A stretch of 15,540 bases of DNA. It comes from Deltaproteobacteria bacterium TL4 (GTDB lineage Bacteria; SAR324; NAC60-12). The stretch is from NCBI GenBank assembly GCA_051382335.1, contig JBBCAX010000354.1, forward strand, positions 1 to 15,540. The letters are read 5' to 3'. The position numbers and the translations under genes are program-made. Below are positions 99 through 15,540 of this stretch, piece after piece (within the stretch, counting starts at the first letter, position 1; every line of letters begins with the position of its first letter). The notes under the pieces are model-generated. The model was not told the origin of the DNA and did no database searches. It saw only the letters and a list, made by a program, of their open reading frames with translations.

Positions 99-2015
99 AT
101 GAACAGCCCTGGTGGTGGAATACGAGTTAAAGAAGAAGCTGAGGATTTATCACAGAAACGGGATGAAGCAAAAAAACAAGCCCTGCAAAAAGCGAAGGCC
201 CGTACCCTGGCCCGACAACAAGCGCTTGCGGAAAGAATGGCGACGGCTGCCAATCAGTTGGCAGCGGCAATGAATGAATCGGCTGCGGCTTCTGAAGAAT
301 TAGGAAAGACCATGGAAGTGGTTGCCACTACCGCAGAAGAAGGCAGTGCCAATGCAGAGGAATCACAAACAGCGATTCAGCAAATCAAAAATACAGCGAT
401 CAACAGTAATCAAAAAGCCTCCGAGTCTTTGGAAAGAATCAATGCGATTCAAAAATTGATTCGAATCACCAGTATGGATATTAACCGCCTGATTACAGGC
501 GTCGATATCGCGGCCACAAGAAATCTTGAATCGGCAAAATTGATTGGAGAGATGGAACAGCAATCGATAGAAATTGGAAATATTGTGGGAACTGTGGTTC
601 GTATTGCGGATCAAACCAATCTTCTGGCTTTGAACGCCGCGATTGAGGCAGCTCGGGCCGGAGAACATGGTCGTGGATTTGCGGTCGTTGCCGATGAAGT
701 TCGCAATCTGGCTGAAACCAGTGAACAAAGCGCTCGGAACATCAGCAATGTGGTTGGAGAAATCCAGGAGCAGGTCAAAGTTGTTGCCAAGCAAGTGGAG
801 GACATGGCGAATAGTACCCGTGAAGAAGTGGAAAAAGCAAAAGGAATTACTACGGATCTTTCACAAGTGGAGAAAGATGTCATTGAAGTCTCCGAAGGGG
901 CGACTGAGATTAACAGAAATGCCCAACAACTTCAGAAAGGAGCAGAAGAATTTCTTGCAGGAGCGGAAACCATAGCGGCAGCGTCAGCAGAGTCGGCATC
1001 CGCTTGCGAAGAAGCCTCCAAGTCGGTGGATGAACAAAATAAAGCGTTTGCGGAAATGAACAACGCTATTACGGAACTGGCTGAAATGGCCGATGAGTTG
1101 AAAACTTCGACTGATGCGCAAAAATCTGCTGAAGAAGTCGCGGCAATGGCTGAAGAATTATCAGCCAACGCAGAAGAAGCGAATGCTGCCTCCGCCCAGA
1201 TCATGAGTGCCATTGAACAGATTTCCAAAGGTTCAAAACAACAACTGGACGCCGCTACAAAAGGTCAAGAGTTGGGTGCGCAATTAGAAACAGCCGCTAC
1301 GGCTATGAATGAAAAATCGCTGAGTTCTATAGAAAAAACAAAAGCAGCTCAGGAACTTCTTGCTAAAAATAAAATCAATATTGATAGTACAATACGCAAC
1401 ATTGCAAAATCTGCGGATGATTCCGTTGAAACAGCCAGTAGTCTTAAAACTCTGGGAGAAAAAGCCCGCCAGATTGATAAAATTGTGGATGCCATTGTCA
1501 ATGTAACCATTCAAACCAATATGCTGGCGGTTAATGGCTCGATTGAAGCGGCTCGTGCGGGTGAATTTGGAAGAGGGTTTTCTGTTGTCGCGGGAGATAT
1601 TCGAACCCTGGCTAACGAGTCTGCTGAAAACGCAGATAAGATCAAGGATATGGTACGAGCTATTCAAACTCAGATTTTTACGGTTTCTGCCGATATTGAA
1701 GGCTCTGCCGTTAATGCGCGACAGGAAGTTCTCAACGCAAAAAAATCTACTGAAAATATGAATCAAATTGACTCCGATATCAAAGATGTTCTTGCCGGTG
1801 CGCAGGAAATTGGGGACGGTGCCAATCAGGCCTTGTCTGCCTTGGAGGAGGCAAACAAAGCCGTTCAAGAAATCGAAAAAGCAGCGATTGAAGCGAACCA
1901 GAACACAAACGAAGCCGCAAAAGCCGCTGAAGAAGGAAGTCGTTCCATGCAGCTTATCGCCGAAGCGATTGAAGACATTGCTTCTCAAGCGGATGAAATG
2001 CAAAATATGGGATAG
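99..2015 (+). CDS. Cytoplasmic methyl-accepting chemotaxis protein with two signalling (MA) hairpins, DosM-like; no TM or sensor domain
   Basis: Two MCP tip motifs 300 aa apart: [38 protein letters not shown] (from aa 169) and [38 protein letters not shown] (from aa 469). A/E/S/Q-rich heptads with methylation-like EE pairs; no hydrophobic segment. Start codon uncertain. Confidence 0.93.
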
Positions 2016-2107
2016 TGGAATTTTAGAAGTTAAGTAATAGATCAGAAATATTTACTACGATTTGGTTTGGACCAATCTAAAATTCTAATTCTAAACATGA
2101 GGAAAAT

Positions 2108-4069
2108 ATGGCTTTACAAACAAACTCGGGCACTGAACAAAAAGAAAGGGAACTGGTGACCTTCCGTCTGGATGAACAGGAATTTGGACTGAGCATCATG
2201 AATGTTCAAGAAATTGTCAGGATGCTTGAAATTACCAGAATTCCAAGAGCACCCGTTTATGTAGAAGGCATTGCCAATCTGCGCGGTAATGTGTTACCGG
2301 TCATCAATACGAGGCAACGATTTTCTATGAGTCATGCTGATGCCACAGACCGAACCCGTGTCGTGGTTGTGGATGTGAACGGTAAAAATGTAGGACTCGT
2401 CGTCGATGCGGTGAGCGAAGTGATGAGGGTCCAGGAAAGCAGCATAGAACCTCCCCCCAAGGTTGTTTCCGGCGATCTGGATGCGGACTTTCTGGAAGGC
2501 GTACTCAAGCTGAATCAGGGAGAGCGGTTGGTCATGACCCTCAACCCGGAAAAGGTCTGTGATATTCAAGTGATCGCTCAGCAGAAGACGACCGAGCTGG
2601 CTCAAGGAGTAACCCGCGGACAGACCGAAACCGGAACCAAGGAAACTCTGGATGAACAGCAGTTGGTGACCTTCACACTGAGAGGAGAAGAATATGCTCT
2701 GGATATTCAGTCGGTTCGTGAGATTATTCGGATTCCAGAAGTGGTCAAGGTGCCTCGGGCTCCTTCTTATGTGAGGGGACTCATCTCCCTCCGTAACCGA
2801 CTTCTTCCCTTGATTGACTTGCGGAATCTCTTCAGTCAACCCCTGATCAAAGAAGAACAGCAGGAGCAGATTGCCCTCCTCCAGGAAAAACAGGAAGCTG
2901 GAAATCAATGGTGGACGAATCTCAACGCGGTGTTGAAAGAAAACCATAAAGAAAATGAACTTCTTCAAATCCCGGTCTTTTCGCTGAAAGATTGGGCCAC
3001 GTCTTCTCATGTGAATCATGAGTTGATGAAAACGGTTCTGGAAAAACTGGCCAAGGTTGTTGCTGCGTTGGAAAACGCTACATTGGAACTGAATCGAATC
3101 CCTTTTAAAAAGGTCAGTCCCTATGTCAATACGACGATGACGCCCTTGGTCAAACGGATGAATGAATTGTTCAAGGAACTCGCTCTGGCCACAGAAAACA
3201 ACGATGAACAGCGAGTGGTCGTTGCTGAATCCAACGGTTTTCCTTTTGGTTTGATTGTGGATAAGGTCAATGAAGTCATGCGAATTGAGAAACGTTTAAT
3301 TGATCCACCCCCCAGTATGGTTTCTGAAGACGAAAAGCAAAAAGTCCAAGGAGTTGCCAAACTCAATAAAGGGAAACGTTTGATCATGATCCTTGACAGT
3401 AAAAACCTTCTGGAAATGAAGGTTTTGAAAGAACTGGCAAATTCCCATGAGCAGAATGTTGAGGCGGAGACCTCCACACTGGAGCAGCAATCCATTGAGG
3501 AAGAACAATTCGTGACTTTTCGTTTGGAAAATGAGGAATTTGGAATTCGGATCATGCAAATCCAGGAAATCAATCGTTTGACGGAGATAACCAAAGTGCC
3601 CAAAGCACCAAACTTTGTCTCAGGGGTTACGAATTTACGGGGAACCGTAGTGCCGGTCGTTGATTTACGGATTCGCTTCTCCATGGAAACCAAAGAGGCC
3701 GATGATCGTACAAGGGTCGTGATTATCGATGTGGATGGCAAGAAAACCGGCTTAATTGTGGATCAGGTTCACGAAGTCCTGCGTTTGTTGAAAGCCGATA
3801 TTGAGCCGCCACCCGAAGTTGTCTCTTCCGACAGTACCAATGAATTCATCAGTGGTATTGGTAAGTTGAACAAAGGAAAGCGAATGTTAGTGCTTCTGGA
3901 TGTGGAAAAGATTTTGACCCGTTCCGAAAAAGCGCAATTGTCTCAAGTAGCCAGTAACCTCAAAGAGTCAAAGAACAATGTGACTCCTGCGGGAACGGCT
4001 AAACGCGTCGATTCTACGGCACCAAAGAGCACGTCCGTACGCAAAACCTTAAAAAAAGCAGACGAGTAG
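2108..4069 (+). CDS. cheW: Triple-domain CheW scaffold protein with ~115-aa helical insert in the second CheW domain
   Basis: Three repeats of LVTFxLxxEx(F/Y)xxxIxxVxEI...VPxAP..V.G...LRG...P.IDLR...GL.VD.V.EV (aa ~15-152, ~185-436, ~467-605). RBS GAGGA upstream of ATG 2108. Confidence 0.93.
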   Translation: MALQTNSGTEQKERELVTFRLDEQEFGLSIMNVQEIVRMLEITRIPRAPVYVEGIANLRGNVLPVINTRQRFSMSHADATDRTRVVVVDVNGKNVGLVVDAVSEVMRVQESSIEPPPKVVSGDLDADFLEGVLKLNQGERLVMTLNPEKVCDIQVIAQQKTTELAQGVTRGQTETGTKETLDEQQLVTFTLRGEEYALDIQSVREIIRIPEVVKVPRAPSYVRGLISLRNRLLPLIDLRNLFSQPLIKEEQQEQIALLQEKQEAGNQWWTNLNAVLKENHKENELLQIPVFSLKDWATSSHVNHELMKTVLEKLAKVVAALENATLELNRIPFKKVSPYVNTTMTPLVKRMNELFKELALATENNDEQRVVVAESNGFPFGLIVDKVNEVMRIEKRLIDPPPSMVSEDEKQKVQGVAKLNKGKRLIMILDSKNLLEMKVLKELANSHEQNVEAETSTLEQQSIEEEQFVTFRLENEEFGIRIMQIQEINRLTEITKVPKAPNFVSGVTNLRGTVVPVVDLRIRFSMETKEADDRTRVVIIDVDGKKTGLIVDQVHEVLRLLKADIEPPPEVVSSDSTNEFISGIGKLNKGKRMLVLLDVEKILTRSEKAQLSQVASNLKESKNNVTPAGTAKRVDSTAPKSTSVRKTLKKADE

Positions 4070-4074
4070 CTTCT

Positions 4075-5145
4075 ATGAAACAATACGGTGTATTGATAGC
4101 AGATGATTCAGCGTTGATGCGTCAAACCTTGAAGAAAATTATTGATGCTGACAAACAGCTTTTTGTGGTGGGAACAGCCAGAGATGGGAATGATGCCGTT
4201 CAAAAGGCGAAAGATTTGCGTCCCGATGTTATTTCTATGGATATCAATATGCCGGGGCTTGATGGTATTACGGCCTTGCAGATCATCATGCAGGAACAAA
4301 TATGTCCTGTCGTGATGGTTTCTTCCCTGACGCAAGAAGGGGCCGTAACCACTTTTGAATGTCTGGAGTTGGGAGCCTTTGATTTTGTTGGCAAACCCGG
4401 AGGAACGGTGAGTTCCGATATGAATTCCGTAGCTAGGGAATTGGTAACGAAACTCAAAGAGGCGGCCAAATCCAAACCCTTTGAGAAAAGCAAAATTCTG
4501 CAAGCTCATCATGGAAAACGAACCAGTTTCGCCCTCCCTCCAAACAGAATCCCCATTCAAAAAAGTTCCAAGTTTGGGTATAACGCAGTGGCCATTGGGA
4601 TTTCAACAGGGGGTCCCAAAGTAATCTTTGATGTTTTATCCATATTGCCCCCGGATCTCAATGCCGCCATCTTTATGGTGCAGCACATGCCCCCAGGATT
4701 TACGGCAAGTTTTGCGGAACGTCTGAATCGCAATTCTACGATCCCTTTTGAAGAAAGTCGTGCGGGAACTTCGATTAAACCCGGAAGAGGATACCTGGCC
4801 CAAGGTGGATTTCACATGAAACTTCATCAGAAGACCGATGGAACTCCTGTAATTCGTGCGACATCCCGTCCAGAGCATCAATTCACACCATCCGTGGATG
4901 TAATGATGGAATCGGTTCTTGAAGTTTATGGAAAAGACACCATTGGGGTTTTGATGACGGGAATGGGCGATGATGGTGCCAACGCAATGGTTAAAATCCG
5001 GAAAGCCGGAGGATTCACCATTGCGGAAAGTGAGGAAAGCGCAGTCGTGTTTGGTATGCCTCAACAGGCTATTGCACGCGGAGGTGCGGACATTGTCGTC
5101 CCCTTGTGGGACATTGCGGCTGAAATTGCGAAAGCGGTTATGTAA
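4075..5145 (+). CDS. cheB: Chemotaxis response regulator protein-glutamate methylesterase CheB
   Basis: N-terminal REC (VLIADDS, SMDINMPGLDG, FVGKP). C-terminal methylesterase triad motifs GISTGG, VQHMP, LMTGMGDDGA, plus VVFGMP. Confidence 0.96.
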   Translation: MKQYGVLIADDSALMRQTLKKIIDADKQLFVVGTARDGNDAVQKAKDLRPDVISMDINMPGLDGITALQIIMQEQICPVVMVSSLTQEGAVTTFECLELGAFDFVGKPGGTVSSDMNSVARELVTKLKEAAKSKPFEKSKILQAHHGKRTSFALPPNRIPIQKSSKFGYNAVAIGISTGGPKVIFDVLSILPPDLNAAIFMVQHMPPGFTASFAERLNRNSTIPFEESRAGTSIKPGRGYLAQGGFHMKLHQKTDGTPVIRATSRPEHQFTPSVDVMMESVLEVYGKDTIGVLMTGMGDDGANAMVKIRKAGGFTIAESEESAVVFGMPQQAIARGGADIVVPLWDIAAEIAKAVM

Positions 5146-5190
5146 ACGAGGTTAATTCAATCGTTAAAAATTAAAAAATATGGAATTATT

Positions 5191-6087
5191 ATGACAAAAA
5201 ATGATCCAGCCTCTTATCTTGAATCAGGAACCAATGAACTCAAAATCCTGGAATTTTCCGCGGGAGGACTGCACTTTGGTTTGAATATTTTAAAAACCAG
5301 CCGAGTTCTGAATACTCCGGAACGCTTAACCAGTCTGGTTAACGCGCCTCCTTTCCTGATTGGAATCATGGATAATCTGGGGGTGACGGTTCCCGTGATT
5401 GATTTGGCAAAATTTTTAAAATTGAAGGAAGAAAAAAGAAAAGAAAAGGAACCCCTGAAAGGACGGATCATTGTTACGGAGTTCTTTGGACAGGTGAATG
5501 GGTTTTTCATTGAGCGGGTGCATTACGTTCATACTATCTTATGGAGAAAGGTTTTTGACTCCAATGAGATTTTGGGAAATCTGGGCAGTGATTATGTCAT
5601 TGGGATTGTACGACCTGATGAAAAAACCAATATTCTGCTGCTGGATTATGAAAAAATCATTCTGGAACTGAGTCCTGAATTAAAGAGAGAGGAATTAGGA
5701 AAGATTCCTGACGATTTTCAAGGAAATCAACGTAAGGTTTTGATTGCTGAAGATTCTTCGGCCGTCAGGGATATGTTGACACTGGAATTGAGTGAACGGG
5801 GATTCGAGGTGCTTTCGGTCAAAGATGGAATGGAGGCTTTGGAAGTCTTCAGGAACACCCCTGACCTTTCATTGGTAATTTCGGATGTGGAAATGCCACA
5901 ACTTGAAGGGCTGAGTTTGACCAAAATAATCAAAGAGGAAAATCCTAAAATGCCGGTCATCGTCTATTCTTCCATTGGGGATCCAGGAATGAAAGAACGG
6001 GCAAAAGCAGTAAACGCGGATTTTCATGTGACCAAACTTAACATTGACGAATTGATCGATTCAGTACGGCAACTTCTTAAACAGTAG
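5191..6087 (+). CDS. cheV: CheV (CheW domain + receiver domain)
   Basis: CheV-type N-terminus (LESGTNELKILEF...FGLNI; IIVTEF; LLDYEKII) plus C-terminal REC (LIAEDS, VISDVEMP, YSS, TK). Confidence 0.9.
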   Translation: MTKNDPASYLESGTNELKILEFSAGGLHFGLNILKTSRVLNTPERLTSLVNAPPFLIGIMDNLGVTVPVIDLAKFLKLKEEKRKEKEPLKGRIIVTEFFGQVNGFFIERVHYVHTILWRKVFDSNEILGNLGSDYVIGIVRPDEKTNILLLDYEKIILELSPELKREELGKIPDDFQGNQRKVLIAEDSSAVRDMLTLELSERGFEVLSVKDGMEALEVFRNTPDLSLVISDVEMPQLEGLSLTKIIKEENPKMPVIVYSSIGDPGMKERAKAVNADFHVTKLNIDELIDSVRQLLKQ

Positions 6088-6129
6088 TTGCCAATGCTTG
6101 TTTTCAACAATAGAAACCAGAAGTGGTTC

Positions 6130-6225
6130 GTTCTACGCATTTTTTGCCCAAGATATTTTTTGATTTTGAGAAGGTAACCTTAGTCCCTCCGGGACTAAAA
6201 ACAATGGGCAAAAAATGGTAGGAAC
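6130..6225. repeat. Short MITE-like element, family A, collapsed copy with a single GTCCC-N3-GGGAC hairpin
   Basis: Imperfect terminal IR GTTCTACGCATTTTTTGCCCA (6130-6150) / TGGGCAAAAAATGGTAGGAAC (6205-6225). Hairpin TTAGTCCC-TCC-GGGACTAA at 6180-6198. Closely matches both ends of 7031-7310. Confidence 0.85.
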
Positions 6226-6286
6226 AGCATAGGCTCTAAGATAGCCGAATTCTACAGCCTAGAATCGCCACTAATGAAGGTACACT

Positions 6287-6985
6287 ATGGCAGAAGAACA
6301 TACAGAAATTAAAACCAGAATCTCATATTTAATTCACGATATTGAGCCGTCTCTCGCTTCCTTTCAAAGCGTCTTGCGACTGCTCAAAACGAATCAGTAT
6401 GATCCCAAGAATCCTTTGCATCAGCGTCTGATAGCCAGTTGTGATTCAGCCATGGCTTTTTCCAAGGATCTGCTGCAAAACATGTTGGAGTATTCCCGAT
6501 TGCACAAAATCGGGATTTCGTTGATCCCTGACTGGATCGAATGGGAAAAGGTACTGGAAGAGATGCTCTCTCTTTCTCTGGCACTATCGCAGGAAAAAGA
6601 AATTCTGATTGTTTGGGAAGTAGAGGAGGGCGGATTGAAGTCTTTTAGTGATTCAAGGCTGATGAGACGTATTTTGAACAATCTGGTGATTAATGCGATT
6701 CAGAACGCTCCCTCCCATTCTACCATTGGGCTGCGATTTAGCAGAAAGGGGGACTCTGTACAGGTTTTGATTCAGGACGAGGGACCCGGATTACCCGCAG
6801 AGCAAATGGAGTCTATTTTTCAGGAACATGTACAATGGAAACTGCGGAAAACCAAACAATACAAAGGCGTGGGCTTGGGCTTGAGCTTTTGCAAGGAGTC
6901 CTGCGTCTTGCTCGGTGCGTCTCTTTCTGTTCAGAACCGAAAACCGCATGGATTGGAATTTACGCTGATCTTACCAAACCAGTGA
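6287..6985 (+). CDS. Histidine kinase core only (HisKA + HATPase_c), no sensor domain
   Basis: Atypical H-box LIHDIEPSL at aa ~15, N-box NNLVINAIQNA, G1 DEGPGL, G2 GVGLGL. RBS GAAGG upstream. Confidence 0.85.
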   Translation: MAEEHTEIKTRISYLIHDIEPSLASFQSVLRLLKTNQYDPKNPLHQRLIASCDSAMAFSKDLLQNMLEYSRLHKIGISLIPDWIEWEKVLEEMLSLSLALSQEKEILIVWEVEEGGLKSFSDSRLMRRILNNLVINAIQNAPSHSTIGLRFSRKGDSVQVLIQDEGPGLPAEQMESIFQEHVQWKLRKTKQYKGVGLGLSFCKESCVLLGASLSVQNRKPHGLEFTLILPNQ

Positions 6986-7030
6986 AGGCATGAGTCGGCC
7001 CTAAAATTTTGCTAGATTGCTGGATCCTAA

Positions 7031-7310
7031 TTCCTGGCATTTTTTGCTCAAGATTTTTTTTATTTTGAGAAGGTAACCTTAGTCCCGAAGGGACGATTGA
7101 AAATAGCCCCGCGATTTATCGCTGGGGAAACCATTTCCCTATTGTTCCAAGTCCCGTAGGGACGGCTGAATTGAAGGGTACCGTGGCCATTTTCAGTCGT
7201 CCCTACGGGACTAAAGAGATAGGGGTTTCATCTTCCCAGCGATAAATCGCTGGGCTATTTTCAATCGTCCCTCCGGGACTAAAAAACATTGGGCAAAAAA
7301 TGGTAGGAAC
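7031..7310. repeat. MITE-like element, family A, full copy carrying a REPIN-like nested palindrome (7079-7282)
   Basis: Same ends as 6130-6225. 48-bp IR arms 7079-7126 / 7235-7282 (2 mismatches) and inner 21-bp IR 7150-7170 / 7192-7212 (1 mismatch). Four GTCCC-N3-GGGAC units at 7082, 7151, 7199, 7267. Confidence 0.9.
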
Positions 7311-7326
7311 CCCATGGACTCTAACA

Positions 7327-7520
7327 TATAGATGTTCATTCAAATCAATTCATTTGAGTCTAACCCCGACTGTGGAGTGCTAAAGCTTACTTTGGCCAAA
7401 TCCAAAGAAAGGCCTTCGCCTTTCTGGCCAAAGCAAGCTTTGGTACTCCTGAAACAGCGTAGTTTAAACGGATCTCGCGACAGGATGAGTTTTCTGAATT
7501 TATTTAAATGAACGTCTATA
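7327..7520. mobile_element. MITE-like element, family B (194 bp, TATA-ended TIRs) carrying an inverted GGAG-type REP doublet
   Basis: TIRs TATAGATGTTCATTCAAATCAATTCA (7327-7352) / TGAATTTATTTAAATGAACGTCTATA (7495-7520), 23/26 match. Internal IR GGAGTGCTAAAGCTTACTTTGGCCA (7374-7398) / TGGCCAAAGCAAGCTTTGGTACTCC (7425-7449). Related sequences recur at 15180-15374. Confidence 0.8.
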
Positions 7521-7569
7521 GCAAAATTCCAGGGACTAGGGTACAAGTCATAATTGAAAAAGGGTTGTT

Positions 7570-7974
7570 ATGGAAAAAAAGAATTTCAAAATTTTAGTCG
7601 TTGATGATGAGCCTGCCATTGTGGATCTTTTTGATCGGTGGTTGGGATTTGAATATAAAGTTACTGGATTCAGCAACTCCTGGAAAGCCCTGCAAGCCTT
7701 CAAAAATGAAGGATATCATTTGGTGATCACTGATATCATGATGGATCAGGTGGATGGTTTTGAGTTTCTGAAAGCGGTACAGCTCCTCAAACCTCATGTG
7801 AACACCATTGTGATTACGGCACATAAAAGTTTAAGTAACGCTGTTCGATCCCAACAACATGGTGCGGATTATATGTTTTTTAAACCTCTGGAACTGGAAG
7901 AGATTCAGAAAGCCGTAGAAACCTTATATAAACGCTATTGTTACTGGATAGATTTAATCAGTAATTTATCTTAA
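7570..7974 (+). CDS. Single-domain response regulator (REC) with short C-terminal tail
   Basis: ILVVDDE, VITDIMM (phosphoacceptor Asp), VITAH, FFKP. RBS AAGGG upstream. Confidence 0.9.
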   Translation: MEKKNFKILVVDDEPAIVDLFDRWLGFEYKVTGFSNSWKALQAFKNEGYHLVITDIMMDQVDGFEFLKAVQLLKPHVNTIVITAHKSLSNAVRSQQHGADYMFFKPLELEEIQKAVETLYKRYCYWIDLISNLS

Positions 7975-8206: not shown

Positions 8207-9112
8207 ATGAATTTTTTAAACAGGAAGGAATCAATGAACAATCCCAATAAACACTCAAGTTTCACAAGTGTAATAGCCAGGAATCATGAAAAAATTCTGG
8301 ATAACTGGATCAACACTATTCGAAATTCGTCTTTTGAGCTGCAATCCCTACAATTGATATCGATGGAAGAATTGAGTGGACAGGCACGCAATCTGTTAAA
8401 ATTGTTATCCTTGGTACCCGATGACGCGAATTATAGCGATCTGAAAGGAAGTGAATTTGATGATTTAAAAGATATGCTGAAAGAAATCAGTATGTCCCGA
8501 GCGAAACAGGGATTCAACCCTTCAGAAACCACCGTATTCATTTTTTCAATCAAAGAATCAATAATTCCCTTTCTTCTTGAAGCAGAGCAAGAGAAGGGGG
8601 AAGTGCTTGAGCAAGTGATCCAGCTGAATAAATTGATTGATATTCTGGGATTGTTTGCGTTTGAACAGTATGTGTCCACCCGTGAGGAGATCATCAGCCA
8701 GCAAAGCAATTCTCTTCTGGAACTGTCCACCCCAATTTTGAAACTGTGGCATGGGATTGTGTTACTGCCCTTGATTGGAGTGGTTGATACCGCACGAGCG
8801 TCCCAAAGTATTGAGCGACTTTTGCATGCGATTGTCGATACCGAATCCTCTGTGGCGATTCTGGATATTACGGGTGTTCCTGTGATTGATACACGGGTTG
8901 CCCAAACTCTGTTAAAAACGGTAAATGCCGCTAAAATGCTGGGAGCTCAAACCATCATTACTGGAATTAGTCCCGAGGCGGCGCAAACGTTAATTAAGCT
9001 GGATATTGAAATTCAATCCTTATACACCGCCAGCACGATGCAGAGAGGTCTCGCTAGAGCTTTTGAAATGCTTGGTAAAACTGTAACTGATTTTTCAAGG
9101 AAACAATTATGA
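8207..9112 (+). CDS. rsbR: Stressosome sensor/scaffold RsbR (RsbRD_N-type helical N-domain + STAS)
   Basis: ELSTPILKLWHGIVLLPLIGVVDTARA and ILDITGVPVIDTRVA, with both canonical phospho-Thr equivalents; ITGISPEAAQTLI. N-domain motif SRAKQGFNPSET. True start may be ATG 8234 (AGGAAGGA upstream). Confidence 0.92.
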   Translation: MNFLNRKESMNNPNKHSSFTSVIARNHEKILDNWINTIRNSSFELQSLQLISMEELSGQARNLLKLLSLVPDDANYSDLKGSEFDDLKDMLKEISMSRAKQGFNPSETTVFIFSIKESIIPFLLEAEQEKGEVLEQVIQLNKLIDILGLFAFEQYVSTREEIISQQSNSLLELSTPILKLWHGIVLLPLIGVVDTARASQSIERLLHAIVDTESSVAILDITGVPVIDTRVAQTLLKTVNAAKMLGAQTIITGISPEAAQTLIKLDIEIQSLYTASTMQRGLARAFEMLGKTVTDFSRKQL

Positions 9113-9480
9113 AGGTTCCTATTCTGAAACTCAAAAATATTTTACTCACTTCCATTCAGGTTGAGCTTACGGATGAAGATGCCATTGAATTTCAAAATGA
9201 TGTTTTAAACAAGGTAATCTCTTGTGAAGCGGAGGGGGTAGTGATTGATATCAGTTCCATGGAAATTGTGGACTCTTATATGGCCAGAGTCCTGAGCGAC
9301 ACGGTCAACATGGTTCAGCTTTTGGGAACACAAACCGTGATTTGCGGGATTCAGCCTGATGTGGCCTTGACGCTTATTGAAATGGGCAGAGAATTGCTCG
9401 GAGTAAAAACAGCTTTGAATCTCGATAAGGGAATTGAAATTTTGGAAGGTATCATGAAGAAACAGGAGGTAAAGTCATGA
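9109..9480 (+). CDS. rsbS: Stressosome antagonist RsbS (STAS)
   Basis: MKVPILKL...LLTSIQVELTD..., VVIDISSMEIVDSYMA (phospho-Ser), GIQPDVALTLIEMG, TALNLDKG. ATGA overlap with rsbR. Confidence 0.95.
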   Translation: MKVPILKLKNILLTSIQVELTDEDAIEFQNDVLNKVISCEAEGVVIDISSMEIVDSYMARVLSDTVNMVQLLGTQTVICGIQPDVALTLIEMGRELLGVKTALNLDKGIEILEGIMKKQEVKS

Positions 9481-9881
9481 CCTTTCCCAGTTTGAAAATT
9501 GAGATCCATTCCTATGATTCTGTGATTGAGGCTCGCCAGTCTGGAAGAGATATCGCTAGAAAATTGGGATTTGGGTCTGCGGATCAAACCCGTCTGGCAA
9601 CAGCCATTTCCGAGTTAACCCGGAACGTGATTCATTACGCGAAAAAAGGGGTATGTTGGATTTATGATGAATCGGATGAGAAGACGCGGAAAATCAGAGT
9701 GGTTGTGGAAGATCATGGACCTGGAATCCCTGATATTGAAAAAGCCATGACTGATGGATATACAACAGGACGAGGTTTGGGCGCGGGTTTACCCGCAACC
9801 AAAAGGCTGGTCAGTCAGTTCGATATTAGTTCTCAGCCTGGTTTGACCAGACTGACAATCGCCATGATCCGACACAAGTAA
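9477..9881 (+). CDS. rsbT: Switch Ser/Thr kinase RsbT (copy 1)
   Basis: ARQSGRDIARKLGFGSADQTRLATAISELTRN, EDHGPGIPDI, DGYTTGRGLGAGLP. ATGA overlap with rsbS. Confidence 0.93.
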   Translation: MTFPSLKIEIHSYDSVIEARQSGRDIARKLGFGSADQTRLATAISELTRNVIHYAKKGVCWIYDESDEKTRKIRVVVEDHGPGIPDIEKAMTDGYTTGRGLGAGLPATKRLVSQFDISSQPGLTRLTIAMIRHK

Positions 9882-9906
9882 ACCCGAAACTATAACTTTT
9901 TACTCA

Positions 9907-10123
9907 CTCATGTTACGTGTATAGATTTTGCGGAAAGCTGTATTTTGATCGAGAGTCCGGTTCTGCGACAAAGGGCTTGGGGGATAGGGCATGGGACATG
10001 GATGAGTGTTCGAACATAAATGCTTTCCAATCCCTATTCCCCACCCCCTATTCCCTCTTGACTAGATTTCGACTGTTTTTCGCGGATTATGATGTACCGC
10101 AAAATTCAGACACGTAACATCAA
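9907..10123. mobile_element. MITE-like element, family D (217 bp) with 11-bp target-site duplication and internal heptamer repeats
   Basis: TIR core ATGTTACGTGTATAGATTTTGCGG (9910-9933) / CCGCAAAATTCAGACACGTAACAT (10097-10120), 21/24. Flanking direct repeat CTTTTTACTCA (9896-9906) / CTTTTTAATCA (10124-10134). Internal G-rich and C-rich heptamer tracts. Confidence 0.8.
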
Positions 10124-10143
10124 CTTTTTAATCAAATATTTTT

Positions 10144-10563
10144 ATGGATGAATCCGTTATCATTTCAGTCATCAAAGAACAGGATGTAGCGCAGGCTCGT
10201 CAAAAAGCGATTCAGTTATCAGAACAGATCGGAATGAAAAAACCAGAAACGTATTACATTGCGACCAGTGTTTCTGAGTTGGCAAACAATCTTTTTTTCC
10301 ATACCATTCGCGGTGGAACCCTTTATTTAAATGTGCTGAAAACGCCCGGAAAAATAGGAGTGGAGGTGATTGCCGAAGACACAGGACCGGGAATTCCCAA
10401 TCTTGAAAAAGCAATGACGGATGGCTTTTCCACAAACGGAGGTATGGGAAGCGGACTTCCTGGAGTCTCCAGGCTGATGGATGAATTCCAAATTTTTTCT
10501 GAGGTCGGCAAAGGGACAAAAGTGGTCGCAAGAAAATGGCAATCTTGCCTAATTCGTAATTGA
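10144..10563 (+). CDS. rsbT: Second RsbT-family Ser/Thr kinase (anti-sigma regulatory factor)
   Basis: DVAQARQ, IATSVSELANN, EDTGPGIPNL, DGFSTNGGMGSGLPGVSRLMDEF, GKGTKVVARKW. Confidence 0.88.
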   Translation: MDESVIISVIKEQDVAQARQKAIQLSEQIGMKKPETYYIATSVSELANNLFFHTIRGGTLYLNVLKTPGKIGVEVIAEDTGPGIPNLEKAMTDGFSTNGGMGSGLPGVSRLMDEFQIFSEVGKGTKVVARKWQSCLIRN

Positions 10564-10800
10564 TTCATCAGTGATCAGTTTTCAGTGATCAGGAATCAGT
10601 TTGATATGTGGCAAGTCAAGAGAACTCTTATGCTTGGAAAAAGGACCATCATTTTTAGCAATATCGCATAAACAGGGAGATTGCTTAAAAAACATGTCTC
10701 TTTTTCAAGCACCACAAAATTTCGTTGTTTGATAATGCGTTCCGCTCATTATACTGAAAACTGATTACTGAAAACTGATCACTCACGAGTAATTGATTCA
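10556..10800. repeat. Insertion-like segment bounded by a 12-bp direct repeat, with inverted tracts of TCAG-N3 heptamer repeats
   Basis: GTAATTGATTCA at 10556-10567 and 10789-10800. (TCAGnnn)x5 at 10568-10602 and inverted (ACTGAnn)x4 plus one degenerate unit at 10753-10787. Confidence 0.75.
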
Positions 10801-10803
10801 ATC

Positions 10804-11382
10804 ATGGAAATTTTTCATACCACACGAGCCTTATGCGGAGATTCGCACTGTGGAGATATGTGTTACATTAAAGAATACGAACAAAAAACCATTTTAACTG
10901 TGATTGATGGGTTAGGACATGGGATCTTTGCGGAAGCCGCAGCTTTTGAGGCAGTTGCCTACCTGACAAAACATGATCAGGAAACCATGAAAGATATCTT
11001 TTTTGGCTGCAGTGCGGCAATTAACTCAACAAGAGGGGTGGCCATGGGAATCGGAATCGTGAATCTGAAGGAAAATACCTTAACCTTTGGAGGAATTGGA
11101 AACGTTGAACTGATCATCGTTGGAAAAAATTCTAAACGCAGTGGCAGCGATCCCGGGATTGTCGGAGTGCGGTATCGAAAGTTGAATCCTGTGGTTCTGC
11201 CTTTTGAACCAGGAGATCTTGCGGTGCTTTATACGGATGGGATTCACAGGAACATGGACCTTTCACAATATGCGGATGTAAACCCCGTTGACTTATCCAA
11301 GCTGGCAGAACGTATTTTAAACGATTGGGGGAAGGCTCATGATGATCAGGGAATTCTTTTATGCAAGAGAGAACTTTTGTGA
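10804..11382 (+). CDS. rsbX: RsbX-like PP2C/SpoIIE-family feedback phosphatase
   Basis: Metal-binding motifs CGD, VIDGLGHG, LYTDGI, HDD; TRGVAM and GIGNVE typical of RsbX. Size 192 aa; position directly after rsbRST. Confidence 0.85.
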   Translation: MEIFHTTRALCGDSHCGDMCYIKEYEQKTILTVIDGLGHGIFAEAAAFEAVAYLTKHDQETMKDIFFGCSAAINSTRGVAMGIGIVNLKENTLTFGGIGNVELIIVGKNSKRSGSDPGIVGVRYRKLNPVVLPFEPGDLAVLYTDGIHRNMDLSQYADVNPVDLSKLAERILNDWGKAHDDQGILLCKRELL

Positions 11383-12440
11383 ATAAACCGTCAGGGGTGG
11401 AAGCCCAATATTATGAATTACTCAAATCTTATGTTTCTTCTCCAGACGAAAGCGTGAGGATGGAAGCTGCCGATTTGGGATTTAAATTGGTGAAAACCCA
11501 TATTTTGCCTGAGGAAGTCATTGAACTTCATGAGAATGCCTATTTCCAATTAGCCAAAGAATTGCCTGGCTTGAAACTCAACGAGGTTCTGCACTTGTCC
11601 GATCTTCTGATGGAATTGTTCATGGGATTCAGTTTGGCCTTTCAGGAACAATTGGTGCGTCAGCACGTTGAGAAAGAGTTGAGGGCCTATAATGAAGAAT
11701 TACAATTGAAAAACCAGGAACTGAAAGAGACTCAAGCTCAACTCATTCAAGCTGAAAAAATGAGCGCAGTGGGAACAATGGCCGCAGGAGTTGCTCATGA
11801 ATTGAATAATCCGTTGATGGGAATTCTGAATTATCTTCAGTATTGCGCAAAACATACAGAACATCACAATAGAATTCACCCTATTCTCGAAAGTGCTGAA
11901 AGAGAAACCAATCGCTGTATCAAAATTGTTCAGAATTTATTAACCTTTGCCCATGTGGGAAGTCAGAATGGGCGATGCTATCGAAAAGAAAATCTGGGAG
12001 TTTTTTTCGAGCGTATCTTCAGTTTGTTGAATTACCAGATTGAAAAACGACAGATCACGGTTTCTCAACAAATCAATGCAAAGACTCCTGAAGTCTGGGT
12101 GGATTCCAATCATATTCAGCAAGTGTTTCTGAATTTAATTTCTAATGCGGTGGATGCTTTGGAAGAGGCGGAGGAAAAACTCATTGAAGTCCACATTCAT
12201 CCCGTCGAAGGAAAGGTACGAATCTCCATTAAAGACACGGGGAAGGGGATTCCTCCCGAATTGATTTCAAAAATTTATGACCCGTTTTTCACGACGAAAC
12301 CTCCTGGAAAGGGAACAGGCTTGGGGTTGTCCATTTGCCGTACCATTGTTGAAGAACATCAAGGGGAAATCTTTTGTGAAAGTGAGCCTGGAAAAGGTTC
12401 TGTTTTTACCGTTATATTGCCTCAGCGTTCTGATTCGTGA
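11379..12440 (+). CDS. Histidine kinase with N-terminal RsbU_N (RsbT-binding) domain
   Basis: N-terminus QYYELLKSYV...ILPEEVIELH...DLLMELFMGFSLAFQE resembles the B. subtilis RsbU N-domain. Coiled coil, H-box AAGVAHELNNPL, QQVFLNLISNA, DTGKGI, PFFTTK, GTGLGL. GTG 11379 overlaps the rsbX stop (GTGA); the ORF track starts it at 11361. Confidence 0.88.
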   Translation: MNKPSGVEAQYYELLKSYVSSPDESVRMEAADLGFKLVKTHILPEEVIELHENAYFQLAKELPGLKLNEVLHLSDLLMELFMGFSLAFQEQLVRQHVEKELRAYNEELQLKNQELKETQAQLIQAEKMSAVGTMAAGVAHELNNPLMGILNYLQYCAKHTEHHNRIHPILESAERETNRCIKIVQNLLTFAHVGSQNGRCYRKENLGVFFERIFSLLNYQIEKRQITVSQQINAKTPEVWVDSNHIQQVFLNLISNAVDALEEAEEKLIEVHIHPVEGKVRISIKDTGKGIPPELISKIYDPFFTTKPPGKGTGLGLSICRTIVEEHQGEIFCESEPGKGSVFTVILPQRSDS

Positions 12441-12505
12441 ATCGGGGCTCGTAGTCGGTTTTTCCCTTGGTTTGGAATTCTTATGGATCAAAAAGAGAGT
12501 TTTAT

Positions 12506-13171
12506 ATGAATAAACAGATACTGGTTATTGATGATGAAGTTGCCATTCGACAATCGTTTGTTCTTGCACTTGAAGATATGGACTACTCGGTGGATACGGT
12601 GGATTCCGGTTTGGAAGGAATCGAGGCAGTGAAAAAACAAGCCTACGATCTCATTTTTCTGGATTTGAAAATGCCGGGGTTGACCGGGGTACAGACTCTT
12701 CGTGAATTGAGGAAGCTGGATCAGCAGGTTCCGGTTTACATTGTTACGGCGTTTCATCAGGAATTTACAGATCAACTACGGCTCTTGCAGGAAGAGGATA
12801 TTGAGTTTGATCTTTTACAAAAACCCATTGGATCGGAGCAGATTATCTGGATTACAAACAACCTTTTGGAGGAAGCACCCATTGAAGAAATCCCGTTTTT
12901 GCTCAAATTGTATGTAGCCGGCGATACGCCACGATCCAGAAGAGCCATTGACAATGTGGAAGCATTTTGCAAGGAGACCATTCCGTCTCAATATGTCCTG
13001 GATGTCATTGATGTTTTATTGAATCCTCAGGAAGCACTGAAAGAACAAATCATCGCGACACCAACCCTCGTGAAAGTAAAGCCTCTTCCAGTTGAAAAAA
13101 TCTTTGGGAATTTTTCAGAGAAACAAAAGGTTTCGCAAGGACTCCGAATCTATATCAAAAAGAAGGAATGA
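12506..13171 (+). CDS. Receiver domain fused to C-terminal KaiB domain (REC-KaiB)
   Basis: REC motifs ILVIDDE, IFLDLKMPG, IVTAF, QKP. KaiB signature LKLYVAGDTPRS..A...VIDVLLNPQ.A....IIATPTLVKVKPLPV..I.G..S...KV..GL (12893-13156). ATG 12506 with AAGAGAG RBS is preferred over the ORF-track start 12467. Confidence 0.92.
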   Translation: MNKQILVIDDEVAIRQSFVLALEDMDYSVDTVDSGLEGIEAVKKQAYDLIFLDLKMPGLTGVQTLRELRKLDQQVPVYIVTAFHQEFTDQLRLLQEEDIEFDLLQKPIGSEQIIWITNNLLEEAPIEEIPFLLKLYVAGDTPRSRRAIDNVEAFCKETIPSQYVLDVIDVLLNPQEALKEQIIATPTLVKVKPLPVEKIFGNFSEKQKVSQGLRIYIKKKE

Positions 13172-13177
13172 CTGATG

Positions 13178-13198
13178 GAGAATGAGGAATGGGGAATG
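13178..13198 (+). repeat. Three heptamer repeats (nnGAATG)
   Basis: GAGAATG-AGGAATG-GGGAATG in the short gap after the REC-KaiB gene. Confidence 0.55.
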
Positions 13199-13226
13199 AA
13201 AAAAAGGTCACTACTGTTGGGGTATT

Positions 13227-15074
13227 ATGAAAATATTAATATTAGATGATGACATTCAGATCGTTCAGATCCTTAGGAAGCATCTGAGTCGTTTTGATTA
13301 TGAATCGGCATTTATCGTTAACCCTCAGCTTTTATTTACGAGGTTGGAACATGAAACGTTTGATTTGATTTTATTGGATTATTATCTTCCGGGGACGAGT
13401 GGTTTGACCATTCTTCGGCAATTGAAAGAATCATCGCAGTATCAGGAGATTCCAGTGATCATGATCACAAGTGACAACTCCAGCAACCTTTTATCGGAAT
13501 GTTTTGAGTATGGCGCGGAGGATTTTATCGCCAAGCCCATTGATCCTGTGGTTCTTAAAGCAAGAACCAAAGCGATTTACAAAACAAGCCTCTATAAAGA
13601 AGCCTTGCGAGTCAGTCGGGCCGGTTTTCGGAATATTGTAGAAAAAAGTGTGGATGGTATTGTCATTGTAGATTTGGAAGGAGTGGTTCATTTTATTAAT
13701 CCAGCTCTGGAATCTCTTTTTGGCTGCAAGAAACAGGATTTATTAGGGAAAAAAATGGGAATGCCTATTGTTAGTGGCGAATCCATTGAAATTGATGTTA
13801 TCCACAGTACAGGGGAGATGGGGATTGGTGAGATGAGGGTCACCGAAACCGAATGGGAAGGAAAACCGGCTTATCTGGCAAGCTTGAGAGATATTACCGA
13901 ACGCAAAAAAGCAGAAGAAGAACTGAGAAAGTTGTCCAGTGCCATCGAACAAACTACGGATCAGGTGGTGATTACGAATAAAGACGAAATCATTGAATAT
14001 GTCAATCCCGCATTTGAACAGCTCACGGAATATACCAAAGAAGAAGTGATCGGCCAATCTCATAAAATTCTGTGGTCAGGAAAAGATAAGCCTCAAATCT
14101 ATGAAAACCTTTGGGAAACCATTCTGTCAGGAGAAAATGTTCATGCAGAATTCATCAATAAAAAAAAGAATGGCCATCTCTATTATGAAGAAACCACGAT
14201 TTCGTCCATTAAGGATGTGGAGGGAACCATCTCCCATTTTGTGTTTACTGGAAAGGAAATTACTGAGAAAAAAAGAGTAGCGCTAGCGCAACAGGAAAAA
14301 TTTGCGTCTCTAGGACGAATCGCAGCGGGAATTGCGCATGAAATCAATAACCCTAATACTTTCATTCGGGGACATGTTCAGACCTTACAGTTTTATTGGA
14401 AATGGTTGCAACCCGTTTTACAGGAGTCCATGCTTTCCCATGCTGATGTCAAAGTGGGACAAAAAAACTTCTCCTTTCTAGTTGAGGATACACCGTATCT
14501 TCTAGAACAGGTGGTAGAAGGGACGACCCGGATCAAATCCATTATCGATTCCATGCGTACTTTTGGAAAACAGTCTGATAATTTTGTCGAAGTGAATCTG
14601 AATGAATTGATTGGTCAAACCTGCACTATGTGTCATTACTTATTAAAAAATATAAGCTCCGTTGAAATTTCCCTTCTGGAAAACGCTCCATTTCCCCTCA
14701 TTACGGGAGATCCCTCTCAATTGATGCAAGTCATGGTGAACCTGGTCACCAATGCTGCGGATAGCATCGAGGCCAACAGTAGAGAAAAACACCAAAAACG
14801 CATCGCGATAAGTTGTTTTCCCAAAAATGAAGGATATAGTTTACAGATTGAGGATAATGGGTGCGGTATTGATGAATCCGCTCTTTTTCATCTTTTTGAA
14901 CCGTTTTATACCACCAAACCCGTCAGTAAAGGAATTGGACTTGGATTGCATATTTGTTATAACATCATTCATAATCATGAAGGAACCATTACCGCAAAAA
15001 ATCGTTTGGATGGAGGCGCTATTTTTGAGATTTGGCTGCCTAAAAAACAGGAAGCCATCCCTGTTTCGAAATAG
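13227..15074 (+). CDS. Hybrid cytoplasmic histidine kinase REC-PAS-PAS-HisKA-HATPase
   Basis: REC (LILDDD, LLDYYLP, MITS, AKP); PAS1 ending RDITERK; PAS2 YVNPAF...KEITEKK; H-box AAGIAHEINNP; QVMVNLVTNA, DNGCGI, PFYTTK, GIGLGL. No TM helix. Confidence 0.93.
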   Translation: MKILILDDDIQIVQILRKHLSRFDYESAFIVNPQLLFTRLEHETFDLILLDYYLPGTSGLTILRQLKESSQYQEIPVIMITSDNSSNLLSECFEYGAEDFIAKPIDPVVLKARTKAIYKTSLYKEALRVSRAGFRNIVEKSVDGIVIVDLEGVVHFINPALESLFGCKKQDLLGKKMGMPIVSGESIEIDVIHSTGEMGIGEMRVTETEWEGKPAYLASLRDITERKKAEEELRKLSSAIEQTTDQVVITNKDEIIEYVNPAFEQLTEYTKEEVIGQSHKILWSGKDKPQIYENLWETILSGENVHAEFINKKKNGHLYYEETTISSIKDVEGTISHFVFTGKEITEKKRVALAQQEKFASLGRIAAGIAHEINNPNTFIRGHVQTLQFYWKWLQPVLQESMLSHADVKVGQKNFSFLVEDTPYLLEQVVEGTTRIKSIIDSMRTFGKQSDNFVEVNLNELIGQTCTMCHYLLKNISSVEISLLENAPFPLITGDPSQLMQVMVNLVTNAADSIEANSREKHQKRIAISCFPKNEGYSLQIEDNGCGIDESALFHLFEPFYTTKPVSKGIGLGLHICYNIIHNHEGTITAKNRLDGGAIFEIWLPKKQEAIPVSK

Positions 15075-15179
15075 ACATTAGCCCAATACCCGTAAATGAA
15101 GTCATGTTTATTATAAATTTCAGCATGTTATGCAGTATAAGCGTAAGTTCTCAATAAGTGTGAAGGAAACTTATTCTAA

Positions 15180-15336
15180 TTGGAGTGCTAAAGCAAGCTT
15201 TGGCCTTGGAGTGCTAAAGCAAGCTTTGGCCTTGGAGTGTTAAAGCAAGCTTTGGCCTTGGAGTGTCAAAGCTTGCTTTGACCAGTACAGGGAAAGCTTT
15301 TCTTTGAATTTTGCCAAAGCAAGCTTTGGCACTCCA
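15180..15336. repeat. REP-like array: four tandem 26-bp units plus one inverted unit
   Basis: TTGGAGTGCTAAAGCAAGCTTTGGCC at 15180, 15206 (identical), 15232 (1 change) and 15258 (diverged). Inverted copy GCCAAAGCAAGCTTTGGCACTCCA at 15313-15336. No spacers. Confidence 0.92.
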
Positions 15337-15348
15337 TATAGATTCCAA

Positions 15349-15374
15349 TGAAATTATTTAAACGAACATCTATA
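15349..15374. repeat. Right terminal repeat of a family B element
   Basis: TGAAATTATTTAAACGAACATCTATA matches 7495-7520 at 23/26. No clear left TIR found. Confidence 0.75.
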
Positions 15375-15382
15375 GCCCAATA

Positions 15383-15539
15383 CTAGGTCGTCTAAATCGG
15401 CCAAAATAGCCTGCTCAAAAAATGGACCTGCAAGAATGGCTCACGAACCCTTATTTTCTACGGGTTTCCTCCAATTTTTCAGAGGGCCAAAAAGTGGGCA
15501 AAAAAATCACATCAAAAAGGCATGTTTTGGACGACCTAG
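15383..15539. mobile_element. MITE-like element, family E (~157 bp including CTAG ends)
   Basis: CTAGGTCGTCTAAA (15383-15396) / TTTGGACGACCTAG (15526-15539), 13/14 inverted match. Non-coding interior; lies at the window edge. Confidence 0.6.
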
Positions 15540-15540
15540 A

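Follow-up and report, generated by a model that had tools for sequence, protein, structure and literature searches.

Minimal stressosomes encoded by rsbRSTX genes with two-component outputs are known from the Vibrio vulnificus type (Heinz et al. 2022, PMC9237108), and the sections of that study considered here also report an RsbU_N domain at the start of some of the proteins encoded downstream. Fusions of RsbU_N with histidine kinases in stressosome operons have already been described (Baral et al. 2025, PMC12143880), and the same paper reports that Tyr28 of Bacillus subtilis RsbU is required for RsbT binding. KaiB has been studied almost only as the partner of KaiC. Its binding to PAS and pseudo-receiver domains has been described within the clock (PMC9478674, PMC6378743); the PAS domains of KidA bind fold-switched KaiB directly (PMC9478674), and PAS genes beside kaiBC outside cyanobacteria were noted by the authors of the KidA study (Kim et al. 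2022, PMC9478674). Here we analyse contig JBBCAX010000354.1 of Deltaproteobacteria bacterium TL4 (GCA_051382335.1; 6.59 Mb in 445 contigs, 100% complete and 2.61% contaminated as judged by markers), the whole of which, 15,540 nt, is referred to below as the window. Eight co-directional open reading frames (ORFs) on its plus strand (positions 8207-15074, domains assigned with Pfam; Table 1) encode RsbR, RsbS, an RsbT (RsbT1), a second RsbT-like protein ('RsbT2', T2), RsbX, an RsbU_N-containing histidine kinase (HK1), a receiver fused to KaiB (REC-KaiB) and a receiver-PAS-PAS kinase (HK2), in agreement with the original prediction made from the DNA alone. The best explanation of this arrangement, which we hold with about even confidence, is that an RsbU_N-type stressosome has been joined to a mostly KaiC-free kinase-receiver-KaiB-PAS cassette, in which KaiB would serve as an adaptor for HK2.

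By sequence comparison, the last three genes are a member of a kinase-receiver-KaiB cassette that often includes an effector with a short PAS domain of a particular type, called PAS* here. A DNA pattern spanning the receiver and KaiB motifs was searched for in 185,579 species genomes and in metagenomes and found at 50 loci of the species genomes and 116 of the metagenomes; the two sets overlap, and many of the metagenome contigs are short. KaiB comes after the receiver at 50/50 genome loci and at 115 of the 116 metagenome loci, the remaining one (L148) being cut by the contig end; the two are fused at 7 genome and 10 metagenome loci and encoded by adjacent genes at the rest. Since the pattern itself demands the receiver-KaiB spacing, a search with the receiver alone, containing no KaiB term, was added, in which only 21-28 candidates per genome were scored. 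It gave matches in one of 151 genomes of the phylum of G082, 7/201 Legionellales and 1/201 genomes of the class of G073, and kaiB follows the receiver in all of them but G244 (locus L238); for the Legionellales this means six of seven genomes, and three of the four that the pattern had not found. The hosts include Pseudomonadota, Thermodesulfobacteriota, Planctomycetota, Chloroflexota, Acidobacteriota, Bacillota and a Thermoplasmatota archaeon, and in the ESM Atlas seven REC+KaiB clusters are present among the 30 matches listed. Tandem receiver-kaiB-receiver-kaiB duplications were seen at L050, L131, L168, L182 and L195.

A complete kinase is encoded directly upstream of the receiver at 37 of the 50 genome loci. 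The motif HELNNPxMGILNxxQYCxKHT is common to these kinases, whose inputs vary (PAS, Cache, GAF, 7TM, REC). HK1 scores 327 bits against a profile of the upstream kinases built without it, the runner-up among 161 ORFs of the genome scoring 215, and the receiver of REC-KaiB retains Asp9, Asp10, Asp53, Thr81 and Lys106. When six domain pairs were screened for covariation, five were not above shuffled alignments, and the sixth, kinase-receiver, gave a single co-varying column pair with Z 13.3 (8.0+-0.9 in shuffles). Its residues exchange charges (n=84: D-K 61, R-D 10, D-R 4, K-D 3), which fits a swapped salt bridge of the usual kinase-receiver interface; at the locus studied here both are changed (S/Q). 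On the strength of this fit, HK1 very likely phosphorylates Asp53 of REC-KaiB, and the pairing of the two that had been proposed earlier is upheld, both proteins belonging to subfamilies that travel together and co-vary. The cysteine of the QYC motif, in the DHp domain, is kept by the cassette kinases (HK1, 11379-12440) and may possibly have a redox role.

The second distinguishing feature of the cassette is its relation to KaiC. In the TL4 genome the TIGR02655 profile gave no match, the PF06745 profile matched only RecA, DnaB and similar ATPases (named from sequence), and 26 KaiC proteins compared with the 445 contigs by tblastn recovered RecA only and no fragment of kaiC; no match to KaiA was found in the genome either. 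The assembly is thus without detectable kaiC, its fragmentation leaving absence short of proof. Among the 50 cassette genomes, which came without completeness values, kaiC-like matches are present in 12 and lie inside the locus in four, and two single-chromosome records (L026, L048) carry the cassette without kaiC; kaiC is found nearby at 12/166 pattern loci. For control we used genomes of one phylum, which are kin and not independent of each other, so that Fisher values for the contrast are overstated: 20/151 had KaiB, and after removal of G082, which as the centre belongs to the cassette genomes, and of G143, whose match was partial (27.5 bits), kaiC was adjacent to kaiB in 18/18, in two of them as a piece at a contig edge. 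The locus is likely not part of a clock. The minority of pattern loci that keep kaiC suggests that the cassette descends from kaiBC operons. At L117, L176, L190, L222 and L171 the receiver and kaiB are followed by kaiC, or kaiBC stands upstream of the cassette; these loci are possible intermediates between kaiBC operons and the KaiC-free cassette.

The KaiB domain of the fusion is the only KaiB of the genome. It matches KaiB structures in the PDB with E-values down to 2e-20, and its predicted model superimposes on Legionella KaiB (4kun) with an rmsd of 1.1 A. Two structure models both give the thioredoxin-like order of elements; AlphaFold2, however, is biased toward this state and predicts it even where the KaiB in question prefers its ground state (PMC10808063). 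Pro174, Thr185 and Pro186 are invariant over 127 non-redundant cassette KaiBs, and the proline-containing ATPT loop is kept.

PAS* is encoded by the gene after kaiB at 25/50 genome loci and 25/115 metagenome loci, in effectors that include kinases, GGDEF/EAL and HD-GYP enzymes. The first PAS of HK2 is of this type and is one of only two such domains among 55 PAS matches genome-wide. PAS* genes are found after kaiBC pairs as well (G008, G149, G195), and of the loci compared, HK2 is most similar (31%) to kinases whose genes come after kaiC in operons of the Accumulibacter type. HK2 is likely to be the output of the operon, with its own target not found in the contig. The second PAS* protein of the genome (contig C158, 8720-10324) has a receiver-like N-terminal start and no kaiB nearby; it is a possible second target.

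The stressosome part forms an rsbRST(X) module, with adjacent rsbR, rsbS and rsbT encoding STAS domains and a kinase, and with a PP2C phosphatase. Thr195 and Thr229 of RsbR occupy the aligned positions of the two threonines that carry mutations in structures of Listeria RsbR (PDB), and Ser56 of RsbS that of the serine replaced by Ala in a Listeria RsbS structure (PDB). As predicted, none of the 14 window proteins scanned with Pfam contains an RsbV, RsbW, SigB, KaiC or KaiA domain; for rsbV and rsbW the search was confined to the window, and in the whole genome the best Sigma_B score is 85 bits against a cut-off of 315. An arginine that corresponds to Arg19 of B. subtilis RsbT is present in RsbT1, T2 and 4/4 RsbTs of RsbU_N-type modules, and in 0/17 rows of cassette-type RsbTs; a second arginine is kept in RsbT1 and lost in T2. 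RsbT1 is the likely ligand of the RsbU_N domain, and the proposed route from stress through RsbT to the kinase is borne out in part, by the retained phosphorylation sites of the stressosome and by an arginine typical of RsbU_N-type modules. T2, which had been read as a second RsbT, more probably represents the N-terminal half of a two-domain RsbX that is here encoded by a gene of its own. That T2 might be the original RsbT of the cassette is less probable: it scores higher against RsbTs than against RsbX halves, but lies outside the cassette RsbT clade, and gene order favours a split RsbX. Elsewhere in the genome (contig C240, 434-1468) lies a gene, beside a CheR-like one (named from sequence), for a protein of 345 aa whose N-terminal domain is RsbT-like and whose C-terminal part has no Pfam match.

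The RsbU_N domain of HK1 scores 40.8 bits in Pfam (cut-off 25.5; E 2.5e-10) and matches the B. subtilis RsbU structure with E 3.4e-10. Glu24 of RsbU is kept in HK1 and in 23/23 homologues, and the contact positions Tyr28, Ile74, Ile78 and Arg91 are occupied in HK1 by Met, Met, Met and Gln, the changes of the tyrosine and isoleucines being typical of the 23 homologues. This input is exceptional for the cassette. Genes for rsbR-S-T stand upstream at 15/166 other pattern loci, and at two more found later, and at all of these stressosome-linked loci the domain at the start of the kinase is RsbT-like but degenerate (hhalign 96.3%, E 1.7e-9); the RsbU_N profile matched 0/166. RsbU_N was also absent from the 119 other top matches to full-length HK1, and a word-based search with its RsbU_N region matched the query alone; an exhaustive search yielded two proteins, P0242 and P0243, which fuse RsbU_N to the cassette kinase signature. 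At 4/5 RsbU_N loci drawn from a sample of 301 genomes, three of the four agreeing loci being near-identical kin, rsbR/S-T are followed by a two-domain gene (RsbT-like plus PP2C) and then by an RsbU_N kinase with a non-cassette core. The predicted order stressosome-kinase-REC-KaiB recurs, but in distant lineages: in a set of 40 relatives from the family or order of TL4, searches recovered neither the receiver nor RsbT1, and four carry an unfused KaiB.

In trees, the window rsbS groups with RsbU_N-type modules (support 91/93) and RsbX with the phosphatase halves of two-domain RsbX (92/96), and the RsbT, RsbS and RsbX trees all place the window genes outside the cassette-type clade (89/86, 91/93 and 92/96, none starred). 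Together with the arginine pattern, this makes the operon probably a chimera joined within HK1. With RsbU_N here, a degenerate RsbT-like domain elsewhere and stressosome genes that group with RsbU_N-type modules, the wiring of a stressosome to the cassette appears to have arisen here a second time, independently, through RsbU_N. RsbR proteins with a protoglobin domain are linked to the cassette at L030, L037, L054 and L056, which makes oxygen one possible input.

In the mechanism that we propose, stress would free RsbT1, which would switch HK1; HK1 would phosphorylate the receiver of REC-KaiB, whereupon the KaiB part would engage the PAS* of HK2 as an adaptor. That RsbT1 binds RsbU_N and changes the activity of HK1, with T2 and RsbX resetting RsbR and RsbS, seems fairly probable by homology. 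Judged by gene order and the KidA precedent, the step in which KaiB, having adopted the thioredoxin-like fold, would bind PAS* and regulate HK2 is about as likely as not. The original prediction had named the neighbouring kinase as an alternative to KaiC as the target of KaiB, and we judge it the better reading of the two, the binding itself being inferred. Several observations weigh against this mechanism. Covariation is not above shuffles for KaiB-PAS* (n=37) or for receiver-KaiB (n=111). PAS* follows kaiB at only half of the loci, KaiB is missing from six of the nine control genomes in which a strong PAS* occurs, TL4 itself has a second PAS* gene that lacks a neighbouring kaiB, and at L238 the receiver is followed by PAS* without kaiB. 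The three best matches of this KaiB are kaiC-adjacent KaiBs (51-53% identity), and the KaiB tree places it weakly with them. This tree, from a quick search over 169 rows and 93 columns, lacks the strength to establish a single clade. On the input side, Tyr28 is Met in HK1, as it is lost in all 23 homologues, Arg91 is Gln, and Leu27, present in 23/23 homologues, is Arg in HK1 alone. Finally, two strong hairpins sit within the operon.

The alternative that survives best, though we regard it as rather unlikely, is that KaiB acts upstream or in cis, binding the receiver or HK1 and tuning phosphorylation, with the signal passing from receiver to effector by phosphorelay or by direct binding of PAS*. 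The adjacency or fusion of receiver and KaiB is the constant feature of the cassette, L238 lacks kaiB between receiver and PAS*, HK2 has a receiver of its own with Asp51, fold-switched KaiB binds the pseudo-receiver of CikA (PMC6378743), and RsbU_N shares its fold with the C-terminus of KaiA (PMC11372060). However, covariation of KaiB is absent with the kinase as well as with the receiver, the model of the REC-KaiB fusion has no confident domain arrangement (pTM 0.57, linker pLDDT <50), and, RsbU_N being missing from all 166 other pattern loci, KaiB cannot depend on that domain. It is more doubtful still that KaiB is the remnant of a lost kaiBC operon beside an ordinary stressosome and two-component relay, possibly broken by inserted elements. 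The kaiB-kaiC-PAS* arrangements that follow the same receiver at L117 and L176, the patchy distribution (0/40 relatives) and the hairpin insertions would agree with such a history, but the domain is intact, its three invariant residues hold across the cassette copies, and it has persisted across several bacterial phyla and in an archaeon, with in-frame fusions at 17 loci. Least probable of all is that REC-KaiB, once phosphorylated, controls a KaiC ATPase that is present elsewhere in the cell and either missing from the assembly or highly diverged, control of a KaiC being what the original prediction had favoured: the 445 contigs, the closeness of this KaiB to kaiC-adjacent ones, the 12/166 loci with kaiC nearby and the kept ATPT loop speak for it, but the search for kaiC that had been recommended, run in three ways on a 100%-complete assembly, recovered neither the gene nor a fragment, and 38/50 cassette genomes lack kaiC, the two single-chromosome records included.

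Returning to KaiB as an adaptor for HK2, one may speculate, with considerable doubt, that the phosphorylated receiver took over the role of KaiC in capturing fold-switched KaiB, so that the cassette would be a KaiC-free delay or memory device to which stressosomes have been joined at least twice independently, via a dead RsbT-like domain and via RsbU_N. If so, the slow fold switch of KaiB would restrict the response of kinases and c-di-GMP enzymes to stress that persists.

Table 1. Genes and inverted-repeat elements of the predicted operon (window coordinates)
Feature	Coordinates	Strand	Domains and remarks
rsbR	8207..9112	+	RsbRD_N + STAS (Pfam); stressosome co-antagonist; only copy in the genome
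rsbS	9109..9480	+	STAS (Pfam)
rsbT1	9477..9881	+	HATPase_c_2 (Pfam); switch serine kinase
inverted-repeat element 1	9910..10120	.	24-nt arms, 88% complementary; folding z -4.5
'rsbT2'	10144..10563	+	HATPase_c_2 (Pfam); RsbT-like ATPase domain, motifs intact
inverted-repeat element 2	10556..10800	.	41-nt arms between identical 12-nt direct repeats; folding z -8.1
rsbX	10804..11382	+	PP2C/SpoIIE-type phosphatase domain (SpoIIE Pfam match over cut-off); feedback phosphatase
HK1	11379..12440	+	RsbU_N (11406-11639) + HisKA + HATPase; His140; GTG start
REC-KaiB fusion	12506..13171	+	receiver 12506-12877; KaiB domain 12905-13150 (Pfam KaiB E 2.3e-20)
HK2	13227..15074	+	REC (Asp51) - PAS* 13611-13922 - PAS - HisKA (His371) - HATPase

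Start and stop codons overlap by four bases at rsbR/rsbS, rsbS/rsbT1 and rsbX/HK1, the last being the GTGA coupling noted originally. The remaining intergenic gaps are of 262 and 240 nt, on either side of 'rsbT2', and then of 65 and 55 nt. Each of the two long gaps contains an inverted-repeat element. Element 1 has two near-full copies of ~220 nt (83-86% identity) on other contigs, and no further copy of element 2 was found in the genome; without the latter, T2 and rsbX would lie 7 nt apart. The gene run looks like one predicted operon plus two later insertions. A scan for promoters and terminators stayed at chance level (13 vs 15.4 and 6 vs 6.6, respectively).

Upstream of the operon, positions 99-6087 encode chemosensory proteins: one of 638 aa in which MCP signalling is matched twice, a protein with four CheW domains, CheB and a CheW-REC protein; cheA was not found on the contig. 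At 16/166 loci the cassette has chemosensory genes in its vicinity, of differing types, and those of the window were not counted as a part of it, as they share only 26-41% identity with their counterparts elsewhere. A 232-aa kinase-like protein (ATPase domain, no HisKA match) and a lone receiver are encoded at 6287-7974, either of which may modulate HK2 or be its target. Intergenic repeats occupy 6088-6286, 6986-7569 and 15075-15540, one of them with >200 matches on ~108 contigs, and probably explain the fragmented assembly.

A literature search found no paper containing both 'stressosome' and 'KaiB' and, outside subscription journals, no description of the cassette. What this locus contributes is the genome-wide failure to find kaiC, the control, the covariation and the RsbU_N wiring. 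A cassette mostly without KaiC in several phyla and an archaeon points to a clock-independent job of KaiB in two-component and c-di-GMP signalling, which bears on the origin of clock parts. The locus also offers input, kinase, receiver-KaiB and effector as one run of soluble proteins that can be reconstituted, and a testable case of control of a histidine kinase by RsbT through RsbU_N, which is proposed but not shown in the parts of the literature considered here (PMC9237108, PMC12143880).

As outlined above, the nearest stressosome relative is the Vibrio vulnificus type, with which the locus shares the order rsbR-S-T-X without rsbV, rsbW and sigB and signalling genes next to it; as far as that type is covered by the source considered, RsbR here has RsbRD_N instead of a globin, an additional RsbT-like gene precedes rsbX, and the output includes KaiB. 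As in the B. subtilis RsbT-RsbU pair, a four-helix RsbU_N input is joined to an effector, but the four contact residues listed above are replaced and the core is that of a KaiB-cassette kinase. The KaiB domain resembles those of the KaiABC and KaiBC timers (Synechococcus elongatus, Rhodobacter sphaeroides) and of Legionella (4kun) in exceeding the Pfam cut-off, and differs in being fused to a phosphorylatable receiver in a genome where neither KaiC nor KaiA was found. KidA of S. elongatus is, like HK2 as proposed, a PAS-bearing enzyme that binds fold-switched KaiB; however, it works within a KaiABC clock, and the effector here is a kinase in a genome with no KaiC found, its PAS* being a possible homologue of the KidA PAS domains. 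Kai homologues beside two-component genes outside the canonical clock, as seen here, are also known from the KaiA3-KaiB3-KaiC3 system (PMC11372060), which, according to the portion of the report considered, needs KaiC3 and has its receiver fused to KaiA and not to KaiB. They are known, too, from the KaiC-kinase-single receiver modules of Pseudomonas (bioRxiv 10.1101/2022.01.26.477890), which, in what the preprint presents of them, possess KaiC without KaiB and are thus the mirror image of this locus.

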